DNA of 64,000 nt from an uncultured Candidatus Saccharibacteria bacterium (GCA_964567265.1 CAZMLK010000002.1:138813-202812), one strand, 5' to 3'; positions 1,714-39,049 are shown, counted from the first letter of the stretch. Program-made: numbers and translations. Notes: generated from the sequence alone by a model not told the origin.

Positions 1714-1784
1714 GCGGGATTAGTTTAATGGTAGAACATCAGTTTTCCAAACTGAGAGCAGGAGTTCGATTCTCCTATCCCGCA
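1714..1784 (+). tRNA. tRNA-Gly (anticodon UCC)
   Basis: Cloverleaf GCGGGAT acceptor / TTTAATGGTAGAAC D-arm / anticodon stem CAGTT-TTTCCAA-AACTG (UCC) / GGAGTTCGATTCTCC T-arm / ATCCCGC + discriminator A; CCA not encoded. Confidence 0.85.
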
Positions 1785-3259: not shown

Positions 3260-4429
3260 ATGCAACCGCTCGCTGCAAAGATCAGGCCGGAATCACTCGA
3301 CGACTATGTAGGGCAGGATCATTTGGTCGGGGCAGGGAAGCCGCTCCGGATCGCGATCGAGAACCAGCACCGCTTCTCATTCATCCTGTGGGGCCCGCCC
3401 GGTTCCGGAAAGACGACGCTCGCGCGCATCTATGCACGTGCGCTTGATGCACACCTCCATGAGCTCTCTGCTGTCTCTGCCGGCAAGGAAGATATCCGTC
3501 AGCTCTTGAAAGAAGATACGGGCGGCAAGCCGCGCGTGCTTTTCCTCGATGAGATCCATCGGTTCAATAAAGCGCAGCAGGATTTTCTCTTGCCGTATGT
3601 CGAGTCGGGCGAGATCACCTTGATCGGCGCAACGACCGAGAATCCGAGTTTTGAAATCATCCCTGCGCTCCTTTCGCGGGCGCGCGTGTTCGTGCTCTAC
3701 GCGGTCTCGCCGGACGGCATGCGCCGCATACTGCATCGTGCCGGATACGACATCCCCGACGAAGCGCTCGACTGGCTCGTGGAGATGGCGAATGGTGATG
3801 CGCGCGCCGCGCTCTCCGTTCTTGGAAATGCGAAGGAGCTCTACGGCGACATCACGCTGTCGTCGCTGAAGGAATCGCTGCAGTCCACCTTCCTCCGGTA
3901 CGACAAGAAGGGTGAGGAACACTACGATACCGTGAGCGCGTTCATAAAAAGCATGCGCGCCTCGCAACCCGACGCCGCGCTCTACTATCTGTCGCGCATG
4001 CTCCAGGGCGGCGAGGACCCGAAGTTCATCGCGAGGCGCATGGTCATCTTCGCGTCCGAAGACATCGGGCTCGCCCAGCCGACCGCACTCGTCGTCGCAA
4101 ACGAAGTCTTCCGCGCGTGCGAGATCATCGGCCTTCCGGAATGTGCGATCAATCTCGCGCACGGCGTCGCGTATCTCGCGCTCGCCAAGAAGGACCGGTC
4201 GGCATACGATGCGCTCCGCGAAGCGGAAGCAGATGCGAAGAAGCACGGCAATCTCCCGATTCCGCTTCCGCTCAGGAATGCGCCGACCAAGCTCATGAAA
4301 GACCTCAAGTATGGAAAGGGGTACGAGATGTACAGTGCCGAATCATTCCTGCCTGAAAAATTAAAAGGAAAGAAATATCTGAAGGACGGCGTTCCGAAAT
4401 CAAAGAAGAAGCCGGATGCTGACATATGA
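3260..4429 (+). CDS. rarA: replication-associated recombination protein A (AAA+ ATPase RarA/MgsA)
   Basis: Walker [17 protein letters not shown], Walker [17 protein letters not shown], MgsA C-terminal helical domains. Confidence 0.9.
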
Positions 4430-35419: not shown

Positions 35420-36925
35420 ATGCACACGCCGCCGGGCATACTTGCCCGGCGGCTTTGTATAATGATTCCCATGTTTCTCTATCCACTCATCGGTGGATTC
35501 GCAACAGGCGTCCTCCTCCGGTCCTTCCTCGTGATCGGGCTTCCGGGAGTCGGTTTCGGTGCCGTGATCGCGGCTGCACTCCTCGCGCTCGGTTTCCGCC
35601 GGGGCGAGCGATCGCTCACCCTCGCGGCGATTGTCTGTTTCGGTATCGTGCTCGGCATCTGCCGCTACACGCTTGCAGAGGATGCGCTCCCGTACGCGCT
35701 CGTCGATTCTCTTGGCGAAGGGCGCATGGTCGGGGCGGGCGTCATTGTCGCCGACCCGGATCTCCGCGAAGGGAACACCAAGCTCACCATCGATCTCGAT
35801 ACCATGAACAGCGCGACGACGACGCTCCGCATCCTCGCAACCGTGGATCGTTTCCCTCGCTTTGCATACGGGGATCGTGTGCAGTTGAATGGCATCCTCA
35901 AAAAACCCACAGCATTTTCCGGCGACACGGAGCGCGTCTTCGATTATCCCGCATGGCTCAAGAAAGATGGCATTGTCGCCGTCATGTCATATCCGCGCAT
36001 CGAACGCATCGAGGACGGAGGAGGCAACATCATTTTTCGATACCTGTTCCGCATCAAGCACGCCTTCCTCTCGAATATCGAGGAGCGCATTCCGGAACCG
36101 GAATCGGGACTCCTCGCGGGGCTCTTGGTTGGCTCGAAGCAGTCCTTGGGGAAGGAGCTCCAGGATACGTTCCGCGTCGCGGGTGTCATCCATATCGTCG
36201 TCCTCTCAGGCTACAACGTGACCATTGTCGCGGAAGCCATCATGCGGGCGCTCGCATTCCTGCCGCGCATGCTCTCCTATGCCGCAGGAGGGGTAAGTAT
36301 CATCCTCTTCGCGATCATGGCGGGCGGCTCGGCGACGGTGGTCCGTGCGAGCATCATGGCGGTCCTTGTCCTCATCGCGCGTGCGACGGGACGCACCAAT
36401 GATCTCCTTCGCGCGCTCCTTGTGACCGGCTTCGTGATGCTGATCCACAACCCCTTCATCTTGGCGTTCGATCCCTCGTTCCAACTCTCGTTCCTCGCGA
36501 CCTTCGGCCTCATATTGATCGCCCCGAAGCTTGAGACGCGGGTCACGTGGATTCCGGCAAGATTCGGCATTCGCGAGATTGTCGTCGCGACGCTCTCGAC
36601 GCAGCTCATCGTCTTGCCGCTCCTCCTCTGGATGACCGGTATCTTCTCGGTCGTCGCGCTTCCGGCGAACCTCCTTATCCTCGGCGCGGTGCCGCCCGCG
36701 ATGCTGTTCGGCTTCCTCGCCGGAATGCTCGGGTTCGTGAGTACCTGGCTCGCGCTCCCGTTTGCGCTCATCGCGGATGCGATCCTCCGTTACCAGCTTT
36801 TCGTCGTCCACGTGCTTGCTGGGCTTCCGTTCGCGGCCTTCACGCTCCCTGCCTTTCCGTTCTCAGTATCGCTGGTTGCGTACGTGCTCTTGGCGCTCGT
36901 CTATGTGCGCGTGTCGAAAAAATAA
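35420..36925 (+). CDS. comEC: ComEC/Rec2 DNA-uptake channel protein (N-terminal OB/DUF4131 plus competence membrane domain; no MBL domain in this ORF)
   Basis: AGVIHIVVLSGYNVTIVAEAIM matches the competence-domain signature (HxxxxSGxN), many TM segments; start may be 35420 or 35462. Confidence 0.7.
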   Translation: MHTPPGILARRLCIMIPMFLYPLIGGFATGVLLRSFLVIGLPGVGFGAVIAAALLALGFRRGERSLTLAAIVCFGIVLGICRYTLAEDALPYALVDSLGEGRMVGAGVIVADPDLREGNTKLTIDLDTMNSATTTLRILATVDRFPRFAYGDRVQLNGILKKPTAFSGDTERVFDYPAWLKKDGIVAVMSYPRIERIEDGGGNIIFRYLFRIKHAFLSNIEERIPEPESGLLAGLLVGSKQSLGKELQDTFRVAGVIHIVVLSGYNVTIVAEAIMRALAFLPRMLSYAAGGVSIILFAIMAGGSATVVRASIMAVLVLIARATGRTNDLLRALLVTGFVMLIHNPFILAFDPSFQLSFLATFGLILIAPKLETRVTWIPARFGIREIVVATLSTQLIVLPLLLWMTGIFSVVALPANLLILGAVPPAMLFGFLAGMLGFVSTWLALPFALIADAILRYQLFVVHVLAGLPFAAFTLPAFPFSVSLVAYVLLALVYVRVSKK

Positions 36926-36971: not shown

Positions 36972-37556
36972 TTACGCAATCTTCTCGAACCTTGCGGCGA
37001 TCGTCTCCATATTGAGCGCCGCGAGATACGCGTCGACATACTTCATCTTGTCGCCAGGAAGATAGTCGACCATATAGGCGTGCTCCCACACATCGAGGGC
37101 GACGACGACGGGAAGCGTGGCGAGCTGACCCTCGTCGTGATTGGTAACCCAGTTCATGTGGAGGCACTTCGCGATCGGATCGTAATTGAGGAGCGCCCAG
37201 CCGCTGCCGCGCGCGACGATCTTCTTGAATGACTCCTTCCAGGCATCCACCGATCCGTATTCGGCGATGAGGAGGTTCGAGAGCGGGCTTGCGGGTAGTA
37301 CTTTCGGGCCGCCTTCCAAATCCCCGAAATAGTATTCGTGGAGGCGCATGCCGTTGAACTCGAATCCGAGCCGGCGGCGGAGTTCCTGCATCAGGTGGCC
37401 GTTCTTCGCGGCATCCGCTCCGAGTTCCTTGAGTTCGTCATCGATCAGGTTCACGTGCTTCACGTAGCCCTGGTACAGCTTCACATGTTCCTCGATCTGC
37501 TTTGCGGAGACGCCGGGCACTTCGGGAAGTGTGAATATTTTGGCTTCGTATTTCAT
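36972..37556 (-). CDS. sodA: Fe/Mn superoxide dismutase
   Basis: DVWEHAYY-type motif (DVWEHAYMVDY), HVNL...H metal ligands. Confidence 0.9.
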   Translation of the reverse strand: MKYEAKIFTLPEVPGVSAKQIEEHVKLYQGYVKHVNLIDDELKELGADAAKNGHLMQELRRRLGFEFNGMRLHEYYFGDLEGGPKVLPASPLSNLLIAEYGSVDAWKESFKKIVARGSGWALLNYDPIAKCLHMNWVTNHDEGQLATLPVVVALDVWEHAYMVDYLPGDKMKYVDAYLAALNMETIAARFEKIA

Positions 37557-37598
37557 GGACGGGTTTGGTTAGCTGGTCTCGAAAAGTATACACCAAAG

Positions 37599-37628
37599 AA
37601 AAAAGCCAGGGTCCGGGTGGACCCTGGC
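37599..37628 (-). repeat. hairpin repeat copy 1 (gccagggtccgggtggaccctggc preceded by A6), reads as an intrinsic terminator on the minus strand
   Basis: 24/24 identity with 37814-37837 except one loop base; flanking similarity extends to ...gggaggc. Confidence 0.6.
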
Positions 37629-37745
37629 AAGTAAGATCAGGGAGGCTAAACGTCTGGGAGGAGATAAGCACGCGGCAATGCGTGTGCCCCAAGTCATGTG
37701 AATGACCAGGTGGGCTTGAAGCCCAGGAACCGCAAGTCCACTGAC
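37600..37745 (-). ncRNA. candidate small RNA (about 140 nt) with its own promoter TTGACA-N17-TACAAA (37749-37777, minus strand) and terminator (copy-1 hairpin)
   Basis: No protein-like ORF; internal hairpins (GACAC...GUGUC; CACGC...GCGUG); bracketed by promoter and terminator; class unknown. Confidence 0.3.
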
Positions 37746-37807
37746 ACCTTTGTACCAGTGTCTTGGAATGCTGTCAATGCCGCGTGAGTGAGGGGTGCGG
37801 GGGAAAT

Positions 37808-37837
37808 GAAAAAGCCAGGGTCCGGAGGGACCCTGGC
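37808..37837 (-). repeat. hairpin repeat copy 2 (gccagggtccggagggaccctggc)
   Basis: See copy 1. Confidence 0.6.
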
Positions 37838-37981
37838 AGTCAGTCGAGGAACTGGGAGGCACGATTACCATAGCAGTCTTCATGATATTTTGTCAATTAA
37901 CCAGGCGTTTTTACAGGTAATCCACATGACAGGCCAAGCGATTCCTAGAGCGGAAACGGGGCCATGGTACCATTTCCAGAT

Positions 37982-38185
37982 ATGCGTACCGCCCTTTTCT
38001 TCATTACTATCCTTGCGGTCGTCGTCGGCGCCTTTCTCTATCTGAACCGGACGCCGTGCGAGGGGAAGTGCCCTGAATCAGCGGGCAAGGAATACTGCCG
38101 AAGCCTCGACAAACGCCGCAAGAATACAGAATTCAACCTCTCATATGGCGACCGTGTCCGCATGGTCATAAACGGCTGCTACTAG
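37982..38185 (+). CDS. possible 67-aa small membrane protein with Cys-rich tail (MRTALFFITILAVVVGAFLYLNRTPCEGKCPESAGKEYC...)
   Basis: One clear TM helix, ends 6 nt before the ComEC-MBL gene. Confidence 0.3.
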   Translation: MRTALFFITILAVVVGAFLYLNRTPCEGKCPESAGKEYCRSLDKRRKNTEFNLSYGDRVRMVINGCY

Positions 38186-38191
38186 GCTTTC

Positions 38192-39049
38192 ATGACATTC
38201 TCTCCGCTCCGGATTCGGATCGGCACACTCGCGCTCCTCGCCGGCGTGACCATTTTCATCTGGTACCTCGCGCTCCAGGCGACGTCCTCTCAGCTCACGG
38301 TCGCATTCCTCGATATCGGACAAGGAGATGCGATTTATATCGAGGGGCCGAACGGGAATCAGATTCTCATCGACGGCGGTGCGGACACCAAGGTGCTTGC
38401 CCGCCTCGGGGAGGTGATGCCGCTCGGCGACCGCTCGATCGATGTCGTCATCGGGACGCATCCAGACAAGGATCATATCGGCGGACTGCCTGACGTCTTG
38501 AAACGCTACGATGTTTCCTATGTATTCGAGCCCGGCATGGCGAATGATACGGCCGCATGGGACGCGTTCCTTCAGGCGATCGCGGACGAACACGCCGGGC
38601 ACATCATCGCGCGCCGGGGAATGGAGATCGATCTCGGACAGGGTGTCATGCTTTCGATATTGTTCCCGGACAAGCAGATCGCCGGCAAGGAGACGAACGC
38701 GGCTTCGATCGTCGCGAAGCTCTCGTATGGCGCCGTCGGCGTGATGCTGACTGGCGATGCGCCGCAGTCAGTCGAAGATCATCTTGTTACCTTGGATGGC
38801 GGGAATCTGAAAAGCGACATCCTCAAGGCAGGGCACCATGGATCGAAAACCTCAAGCGCTCCGCAGTTTCTCGATGCGGTCCGCCCGGCGTACGGGATCA
38901 TTTCCGCAGGGAAGGGAAATTCCTATGGCCATCCGCACAAGGAGGTCGTGAGCGCGCTCACGGAACGGAATGTGCGCACTCTGAGCACCATCGACAGGGG
39001 GACCATCATCTTTACTTCGGATGGGACGGCCGTCGCCTTACAGGAGTAG
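38192..39049 (+). CDS. ComEC-type metallo-beta-lactamase domain protein (stand-alone C-terminal nuclease domain of ComEC/Rec2)
   Basis: Signal/TM then VAFLDIGQGDAIYIE...VVIGTHPDKDHIGG...KAGHHGSKTSS (HxHxDH and later His of the ComEC MBL fold). Confidence 0.75.
   Translation: MTFSPLRIRIGTLALLAGVTIFIWYLALQATSSQLTVAFLDIGQGDAIYIEGPNGNQILIDGGADTKVLARLGEVMPLGDRSIDVVIGTHPDKDHIGGLPDVLKRYDVSYVFEPGMANDTAAWDAFLQAIADEHAGHIIARRGMEIDLGQGVMLSILFPDKQIAGKETNAASIVAKLSYGAVGVMLTGDAPQSVEDHLVTLDGGNLKSDILKAGHHGSKTSSAPQFLDAVRPAYGIISAGKGNSYGHPHKEVVSALTERNVRTLSTIDRGTIIFTSDGTAVALQE

Follow-up and report, generated by a model that had tools for sequence, protein, structure and literature searches.

Introduction

The closest described counterparts of the locus reported here, two predicted small RNA (sRNA) genes on the minus strand of a 64,000-nt stretch of DNA (GCA_964567265.1, CAZMLK010000002.1:138813-202812; this whole stretch is called the window throughout), are base-pairing sRNAs of Alphaproteobacteria. 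MmgR and SuhB are Hfq-dependent sRNAs that act in trans, and cells that lack SuhB are more sensitive to oxidative stress and to other stresses (PMC7143759; bioRxiv 10.64898/2025.12.09.693200). SorX represses the translation of potA under oxidative stress and protects the cells against singlet oxygen and organic hydroperoxides (PMC9438474). The AbcR sRNAs of Brucella carry the motif M1 (CUCCCA) in the loop of the first hairpin and the motif M2 (GUUCCC) between the stem-loops SL1 and SL2 (PMC5461406). In S. meliloti, the motifs CUCCUCCC (aSD1) and UUCCCCUC of AbcR1/2 independently silence the translation of many transporter mRNAs, and the genes for these sRNAs adjoin lsrB (PMC8844928).

A literature search found no described regulatory sRNA from Patescibacteria, the candidate phyla radiation (CPR). 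The locus studied here, which occupies the 407-nt gap between sodA and an open reading frame (ORF) of 73 amino acids, is a concrete and directly testable candidate for such an RNA with defined ends. It probably comprises two tandem, independently transcribed sRNA genes on the minus strand, units A and B, each equipped with a sigma-70-type promoter and a Rho-independent terminator; the 3' module of unit B, homologous to alphaproteobacterial sRNAs (αr8/SorX-related), would have been acquired horizontally, and the RNAs would act in trans. Within this reading, the anatomy of the units, their conservation and the homology of the 3' module are observations. Since the locus has clear alphaproteobacterial relatives, it provides one of the rare opportunities to ask whether an sRNA that acts in trans can cross from one phylum to another and remain functional. 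It also exposes a large alphaproteobacterial sRNA family that occurs in tandem copies and sometimes has a LysR gene as its neighbour.

Results

Anatomy of the two tandem units upstream of sodA

A repeat search of the window detected a direct repeat of 35 nt at 37595-37629 and 37804-37838 whose copies are 89% identical and lie 209 nt apart from start to start. The 24-nt hairpin that it contains, GCCAGGGTCC-N4-GGACCCTGGC, was found with up to three mismatches only at 37605-37628 and 37814-37837 in the entire 64 kb, and never in 100 shuffles. An earlier reading of this DNA, made from its sequence alone (the sequence-only reading), had reported a hairpin occurring twice at a distance of 209 nt, and both the repeat search and the pattern search bear this out. 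The GGGAGGC that it had placed 10-20 nt after each copy is present at 37640-37646 and 37854-37860, 11 and 16 nt past the hairpins, and is the complement of a likely functional seed, GCCUCCC. Both hairpins were called by a terminator scan on the minus strand, in agreement with their earlier description as intrinsic terminators; each consists of a 10-bp stem with eight G-C pairs and a 4-nt loop, and is followed by UUUUUUCUUU or UUUUUCAUUU.

Read along the minus strand, on which all features of the two units lie, the region presents first promoter A with its transcript (about 55 nt) and terminator A, then, after a spacer of 25 nt, promoter B with its transcript (about 145 nt) and terminator B, and finally the -10 box of sodA. 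The proposal of a self-contained non-coding unit upstream of sodA is thus upheld by the promoter-terminator anatomy, and by the conservation described below, but has to be amended in that there are two tandem units and not one.

The promoter of unit A (37867-37896) had been overlooked in the sequence-only reading. It is composed of TTGACA (37896-37891), a spacer of 18 nt and TATGGT (37872-37867), with a TG upstream of the -10 hexamer; it was credited by the promoter scanner with 10 of 12 matches, resembles the consensus more closely than the promoter of unit B, and serves the upstream copy of the hairpin. The transcript of unit A (37804-37861), with a predicted length of about 55 nt from a predicted start site, carries the seed GCCUCCCAG (37860-37852) at its 5' end, followed by the hairpin CAGUU-CCUC-GACUG and by a terminator (37814-37837) with the structure GCCAGGGUCC CUCC GGACCCUGGC and a U-tract at 37813-37809.

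For unit B, direct reading of the sequence retrieved the TTGACA-N17-TACAAA element at 37777-37749 just as it had first been described: TTGACA (37777-37772) and TACAAA (37754-37749) are separated by 17 nt, and an extended -10 TG is present (TGGTACAAA). The consensus scanner omitted this promoter (37749-37777) on account of its -10 hexamer, which ends in A in place of T. The transcript of unit B, predicted at about 145 nt, extends from this promoter of its own to its own terminator (37628-37605) and can be divided into two parts. A 5' domain of about 70 nt (37672-37743) forms the hairpins UGGGCU-UCA-AGCCCA, GUCAU-UCAC-AUGAC and CACGC-AUUGCC-GCGUG and runs into CUCCUCCCAGACGUUUAGCCUCCCUGAUCUUACUU and then terminator B. 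The 3' module of 75 nt (37597-37671) holds seed 1, CUCCUCCCAG (37663-37654), GACGUUUA, seed 2, GCCUCCCUG (37646-37638), AUCUUACUU and the terminator (37605-37628), which reads GCCAGGGUCC ACCC GGACCCUGGC with a U-tract at 37604-37599. Unit A folds with -25.8 kcal/mol (z -5.1 against shuffles) and the 5' domain of unit B with a z of -4.5; the z values of all pieces fall between -4.5 and -5.3 relative to shuffled controls.

Conservation of the sRNA region in related genomes

Both units and the whole arrangement are kept in the three closest relatives, L004, L001 and L002, whose SodA proteins are 98%, 93% and 93% identical, and four relative lineages (SodA identities of 67-98%) carry an sRNA in the equivalent place. 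For the comparison of the window with L001, the four-fold sites of sodA (60% identical) and the two non-promoter spacers between the units (64-68%) served as the neutral reference. Against this background, the promoter of unit A is identical at 30 of 30 positions and that of unit B at 27 of 29, with invariant hexamers and two changed spacer bases, while the transcribed parts, unit A and the 5' domain of unit B included, are 86% identical. Judged by this excess over the neutral level, promoters and transcripts are under purifying selection. The second hairpin of the 5' domain has undergone a compensatory exchange of A-U for G-C between the window and L001 (GUCAU/AUGAC to GUCGU/ACGAC), and a U-A pair of the first has become U-G. 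A 12-nt inverted repeat that would lock the promoter of unit B into a single large junction (37669-37680 with 37775-37786) was also considered as a candidate feature and rejected: its complementarity is lost without compensation in L001, where the promoter hexamers are kept.

The more distant relatives have single or altered versions of the element. L003 (SodA 72%) possesses one unit at the same position, with TTGACA-17-TACAAG, a transcript of about 100 nt, GAUGCCUCCCUCGAUUU and the terminator GCCGGGUC-UUCG-GACCCGGC. The spacer AUCUUACUU is kept in L006 (SodA 74%) and is followed there by a different terminator. At the same place, L133 (SodA 67%) shows TTGACA-17-TATTAT, a hairpin with a C-rich loop (CGUCC-UCCCCA-GGAC) and yet another terminator. 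As far as these sequences can tell, the position of the RNA gene is conserved within one clade and its sequence evolves fairly fast.

The sodA gene has a putative promoter element of its own. A -10 box, TATACT (37585-37590, minus strand), can be read between the terminator of unit B and the sodA ATG (37556), which implies a leader of about 22 nt without a Shine-Dalgarno (SD) sequence. Equivalent boxes are present in the relatives (TGGTATAAT in L003, TGCTATACT in L006 and TGATATACT in L133), and the box follows the terminator in every lineage examined, often as TGnTATACT or TATAAT. The positional conservation of the RNA gene together with these separate -10 boxes of sodA therefore points to an independent transcription unit.

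Relationship of unit B to an alphaproteobacterial sRNA family

The sequence-only reading had been unable to match the RNA by eye to motifs of RNase P, tmRNA or SRP RNA. No Rfam family reached its gathering score in a search of the region. The RNA is nevertheless no orphan, as unit B is homologous to a widespread family of alphaproteobacterial sRNAs. The best Rfam match of the region, suhB/mmgR (RF00519), attained 28.2 bits (E 0.0015; cut-off 41) in a full-length alignment to 37590-37670 on the minus strand; the other sub-threshold matches were ar14 (16.2 bits, E 1.8) and one spurious snoRNA.

A search of GTDB, with each species represented by one genome, for a pattern based on the 3' module (GCCTCCC, gap, GCCRGG, gap, CCYGGCWKTTT) yielded at least 119 loci. 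About 95 of these, among the matches listed, belong to Alphaproteobacteria, where they are distributed over Rhodospirillales, Thalassospira, Kiloniellales, Geminicoccales, Emcibacter and others. In these loci, the flank directly 5' of GCCUCCC, to which the pattern made no reference, reads ACGUCUCCCAGACGU(G/U)(A/U)A, and this is the window's own sequence. An exact word of 27 nt, CTCCCAGACGTTTAGCCTCCCTGATCT, is common to the window and Benzoatithermus flavus (L056), and L001 shares 28 nt; outside the search pattern, 23 of 24 positions match between L001 and the family locus L027.

A covariance model built from 94 alphaproteobacterial sequences only (model R1) scored unit B with 58.8 bits (E 6.8e-16), L001 with 64 bits and L003 with 36.1 bits, and, apart from unit A, gave no further match in the window. 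Alphaproteobacterial second copies that were not part of the seed set and that possess other terminators reach 53-73 bits; the score of unit B lies within this range, and unit B therefore scores like a genuine member of the family. By this homology, it is a cross-phylum member of the C-rich-seed kind of sRNA (αr8/SorX-like) that Rfam does not capture. Unit A is recognized by R1 only weakly (17.5 bits, E 1.3e-3), its second motif being deleted or degenerate; on sequence grounds it does not qualify as a full member of the R1 family and is better regarded as a truncated derivative or sibling.

The two helices of the family, those of the CUCCCA hairpin and of the terminator, are paired to 96.5% in the alignment and show compensatory changes. 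The hairpin, ACGUC/GACGU with CUCCCA in its loop, is supported by covariation in the family and stands immediately 5' of GCCUCCCUG. L001 has it in intact form (CGUC-UCCCA-GACG), and the window, as a result of a 3-nt insertion and a G-to-A exchange, retains only 2+2 pairs together with the sequence of the motif. The 5' domain of unit B is lineage-specific and has no sequence similarity to the 5' parts of the alphaproteobacterial RNAs.

The alphaproteobacterial loci themselves stay below the Rfam thresholds, with suhB/mmgR scores of up to 39.6 against a cut-off of 41 and SorX scores of about 33 against 46.6. This family (L010-L127; ACGUCUCCCAGACGUGAAGCCUCCCUGUUCAACUU plus terminator) is large and highly conserved, and it is missed by all Rfam 15 models at gathering score. 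Its members often occur as two or three tandem copies, for instance at 3577-3652 and 3952-4022 of L037 and at 6529-7312 of L057, and a LysR gene lies just upstream in two (L037 and L042) of the five alphaproteobacterial loci whose flanks were checked. A match on a contig assigned to 'Candidatus Acidoferrum sp.' (Acidobacteriota; L121, 4786-4830) is nearly identical, flanks included, to one in the alphaproteobacterial metagenome-assembled genome of a Dongiaceae member (L068, 93-161), and this contig is possibly mis-binned. Six high-GC viral or proviral contigs from IMG/VR (L147-L152) carry the core of the alphaproteobacterial sRNA, be it phage-borne or in host flanks, with various terminators; these matches show nothing about a route into Paceibacterota.

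Genomic setting of the sRNA region

The nearest named relatives of the SodA and EF-Tu proteins encoded in the window come from bacteria designated 'Candidatus Paceibacterota', 'Patescibacteria group' and 'Candidatus Kaiserbacteria'. By these protein affinities, the host genome is that of a member of the Patescibacteria (Paceibacterota/Parcubacteria). Look-ups of the exact SodA and EF-Tu proteins gave no match; EF-Tu is 100% identical to a protein encoded on a 242-kb contig at NCBI. The cultured members of the Paceibacterota, a CPR group, are obligate episymbionts.

The sodA gene (36972-37556, minus strand) codes for an Fe/Mn superoxide dismutase (Pfam Sod_Fe_C, E 7e-19); as the conserved downstream neighbour it forms the context of the RNA genes and lies outside the RNA. 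comEC is split into two plus-strand parts, a gene for DUF4131 and Competence domains at 35420-36925 and one for a metallo-beta-lactamase (MBL) domain at 38192-39049, and sodA on the opposite strand, the sRNA units and the 73-amino-acid ORF are all accommodated between these halves (36972-38185). The layout of a split comEC with sodA inside recurs in L001, L002, L003, L133 and one JGI contig. The ORF at 37964-38185 (plus strand) specifies a protein with an N-terminal hydrophobic segment, several cysteines and no Pfam match; its position directly 5' of the MBL-domain gene is kept in the relatives, where it comprises 64-73 amino acids. The -35 hexamer TTGACA of unit A overlaps a plus-strand TTGTCA (37890-37896), which may belong to a divergent promoter for this ORF that competes with the promoter of unit A. 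The sole Rfam match at gathering score in the 64-kb window is a tRNA (1714-1784, plus strand, 73.1 bits).

Proposed mode of action

By analogy with AbcR1/2, SorX and SuhB, we infer that the two units are transcribed and act on targets in trans as sibling base-pairing sRNAs through CUCCCA and CCUCCCU seeds. Unit B would offer two seeds, a C-rich motif (CUCCCA, here CUCCUCCCA) that is presented in a hairpin loop in the relatives, and the single-stranded GCCUCCCUG, behind which come a short spacer rich in A and U and the terminator. Unit A would expose a single seed, GCCUCCCAG, at its extreme 5' end. Pairing of these seeds with G-rich (GGGAGG-like) stretches of mRNAs would lower the translation or the stability of the latter, in the manner that experiments have demonstrated for AbcR1/2, SorX and SuhB. 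The conserved adjacency to sodA suggests, as an association, a role in oxidative stress.

Several observations weigh against this reading. The start sites of both units are predictions, and the -10 hexamer of unit B (TACAAA) deviates from the canonical form in its final base. The units reach the gathering score of no Rfam family, either in the search of the region (at E up to 10) or in that of the whole window (at gathering scores). The R1 score is inflated over the part that contains seed 2 and the terminator, because the sequences behind the model were collected by means of a window-derived pattern. The hairpin that presents seed 1 is weakened in the window by the 3-nt insertion, and in the minimum-free-energy fold the CCCAG of this seed is occupied by a CUGGG further upstream. 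Three relatives (L007, L128 and L132) have sodA without the element.

Nor did credible targets of the seeds emerge from the window. SD-like 4-mers precede 10 of the 69 ORFs, corresponding to a 14% background; this count is approximate and refers to greedily chosen ORFs of at least 120 amino acids under a first-start rule. Strict TATACT-like -10 boxes are positioned 4-17 nt before the start codons of 5 of the 69 ORFs, compared with 0.5%, an enrichment of about 14-fold, which suggests that many mRNAs of the host are leaderless or SD-independent. Since the window has no SD enrichment, a literal anti-SD role of the seeds is doubtful here; the seeds would consequently address a few G-rich sites and not ribosome-binding sites in general. 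Given the lack of an SD signal in the window, one has to ask which targets a classical 'anti-SD' seed has in a genome of this kind. Target prediction inside the 64-kb window yielded nothing above chance, and sites complementary to the seeds occur at chance level. With RNAduplex, the best pairing with the start regions of 78 ORFs reached -42.8, compared with -30.1 ± 3.9 for a shuffled seed and a shuffle minimum of -44.6, and the top matches are Pfam-less and probably spurious antisense ORFs. Pairing with sodA or the neighbouring genes is weak (-12.6 to -19.2 kcal/mol).

Discussion

Alternative explanations of the region

The units directly precede sodA and share its strand, a linkage that is conserved in five lineages, and only about 40 nt separate the end of terminator B from the ATG of sodA. 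This is what one would expect of a cis-acting leader or attenuator, in which transcription starts at the upstream promoters and conditional read-through of one or both terminators, riboswitch-like or protein-mediated, tunes the expression of sodA. Such a leader appears unlikely, however, as judged from the sodA -10 box that follows the terminator wherever lineages were examined and from the strength of the terminators (10 bp, 8 G-C, 5-6 U). No conserved alternative pairing that could serve as an antiterminator is apparent, complements further upstream being limited to the 5-nt CCUGG, and no riboswitch or leader family of Rfam matches the region. Furthermore, the alphaproteobacterial homologues are free-standing and often tandem, with a sod gene adjacent in none of the five loci with checked flanks, and some relatives have sodA without the element. 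The hairpins could also be mere insulators or terminators, or decaying remnants of transferred DNA, in which case the hexamers would resemble promoters by chance and the locus would yield no stable functional RNA. The promoter scan of a 2.2-kb region, which found one promoter where 1.0 was expected from shuffles, is compatible with this. Yet there is no upstream minus-strand gene that needs termination, as the neighbours are divergent; the promoters are identical at 57 of 59 positions, compared with about 64% at neutral sites; TTGACA with a spacing of 17-18 nt recurs in L003 and L133; and the duplicated unit has been retained. We hold this explanation to be very unlikely.

That the resemblance to the alphaproteobacterial RNAs has arisen by convergence, an anti-SD-like seed and a GC-rich terminator looking alike without homology, deserves attention because the shared motifs are short C-rich seeds under functional constraint. 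A generic architecture is also indicated by the sub-threshold matches to different Rfam families (suhB and ar14, and SorX and SorY on the relatives), the 5' domain is unrelated, and divergence within the clade is fast, with L003 at 36 bits and L133 without an R1 match. Against this stands the exact identity over 27-28 nt, which covers non-seed positions (GACGUUUAG and UGAUCU); the spacer ACUU and the base of the terminator match as well, and the R1 score equals that of true alphaproteobacterial paralogs. Since positions outside the seeds match too, convergence is quite improbable. The duplication of the hairpin and a minus-strand ORF of 104 amino acids that spans the region could finally be taken as signs of a repetitive extragenic palindromic (REP)-like or other dispersed repeat, or of a gene for a small protein. 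Within the sequences scanned, the hairpin is not dispersed, though: the 64 kb contain two copies, R1 finds no more in the window, and the 13 matches to the 24-mer in a metagenome scan are unrelated and have no flanks in common, which speaks against the REP-like origin that the sequence-only reading had considered. The ORF is split by indels in L001 into pieces of 36 and 73 amino acids, and the region is therefore not coding. A repeat or a small-protein gene is accordingly extremely unlikely.

Origin of the 3' module

Given two tandem sRNA genes as the probable content of the region, the relationship of unit B to the alphaproteobacterial family calls for an evolutionary scenario. Among the matches listed, the family is seen outside this Paceibacterota clade almost wholly in Alphaproteobacteria. 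Unit B differs from Geminicoccales-type sequences at few positions over about 45 nt, despite the fast divergence within the Paceibacterota clade (L003 and L133). The family is broad and highly conserved over the alphaproteobacterial orders. Horizontal acquisition is the simplest explanation, and the module was probably acquired in this way. The 3' module would have passed from an alphaproteobacterium of the Geminicoccales/Rhodospirillales type to an ancestor of the Paceibacterota clade. Gain or replacement of the 5' domain would have followed, and unit A would have arisen by partial duplication in tandem in the lineage of the window and L001.

As to what became of the RNA thereafter, we see about an even chance that a trans-acting sRNA gene crossed the phylum boundary and later took on new endogenous targets. 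It seems highly unlikely that the bacterium captured the RNA from a host or neighbour among the Alphaproteobacteria and has kept it for acting on the mRNAs of this partner, or for mimicking a regulator of the partner. If true, the RNA would not be restricted to the mRNAs of the symbiont itself. The copy is under purifying selection in a bacterium whose own genes, as far as the window shows, make no use of SD sequences.

Comparison with known sRNA systems

The CcsR 'cuckoo' RNAs and RoxS/RsaE are other sRNAs with C-rich seeds. Together with αr14/NfeR1, they follow the logic proposed here, in that unpaired C-rich motifs face G-rich ribosome-binding regions, the genes are often multi-copy or tandem, and a link to stress or redox conditions often exists. 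There is no significant match in sequence or structure between the region and these RNAs, and the likeness is a functional analogy only.

AbcR1/2 (αr15) resemble the locus more specifically through their tandem siblings and through the combination of a C-rich motif in a hairpin loop with a second, single-stranded C-rich motif, each of which represses mRNAs independently of the other (PMC5461406, PMC8844928); seed 1 of the window reads CUCCUCCCA. The alphaproteobacterial loci with an adjacent LysR gene likewise recall AbcR1/2 beside lsrB. In contrast to unit B, however, the second motif of the AbcR RNAs is GUUCCC or UUCCCCUC and not GCCUCCCUG, their motif-bearing hairpin is the 5'-most element and is followed by two more stem-loops, and an lsrB/vtlR neighbour is missing at our locus. 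Unit B thus has an M1-like motif and lacks M2, and neither the window nor L027 gave a match at E up to 10 to any αr15 (ar15) model that the Rfam library may include.

The Rfam consensus of SorX and SorY from Rhodobacter sphaeroides (RF02784 and RF02651) contains CCUCCCUGUUGGAC(C/U)U and a GGCCGGGC-type terminator, as does the module described here. A search of the window at E up to 10 gave a match to neither family, so that the SorX gathering score of 46.6 was not reached. SorX is processed from the 3' untranslated region of an mRNA, whereas units A and B have promoters of their own. Its role in oxidative stress fits thematically with the adjacency to sodA.

With the αr8 RNAs MmgR/SuhB (RF00519, clan CL00108), unit B has in common a small 5' hairpin, a single-stranded CGUUU..CUCCCU..ACUU and a Rho-independent terminator. 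It differs from them in that the window scores below the threshold, the loop of the first hairpin is C-rich in place of the UUCUU of the RF00519 consensus, the RNA is twice as long and belongs to another phylum, and no link to polyhydroxybutyrate (PHB) or nitrogen metabolism is evident at this locus.

The R1 family of Alphaproteobacteria is set apart from the locus by its phylum, by the unrelated 5' domain of unit B, by its LysR neighbour (L037 and L042) where sodA is linked here, and by the 3-nt insertion that expands the first motif of the window to CUCCUCCCA and weakens the stem. Both share, nevertheless, the CUCCCA motif, whose hairpin is intact in L001, the single-stranded GCCUCCCUG, the ACUU spacer, the GCC(A/G)GG...CC(U/C)GGC terminator and the occurrence of tandem siblings.

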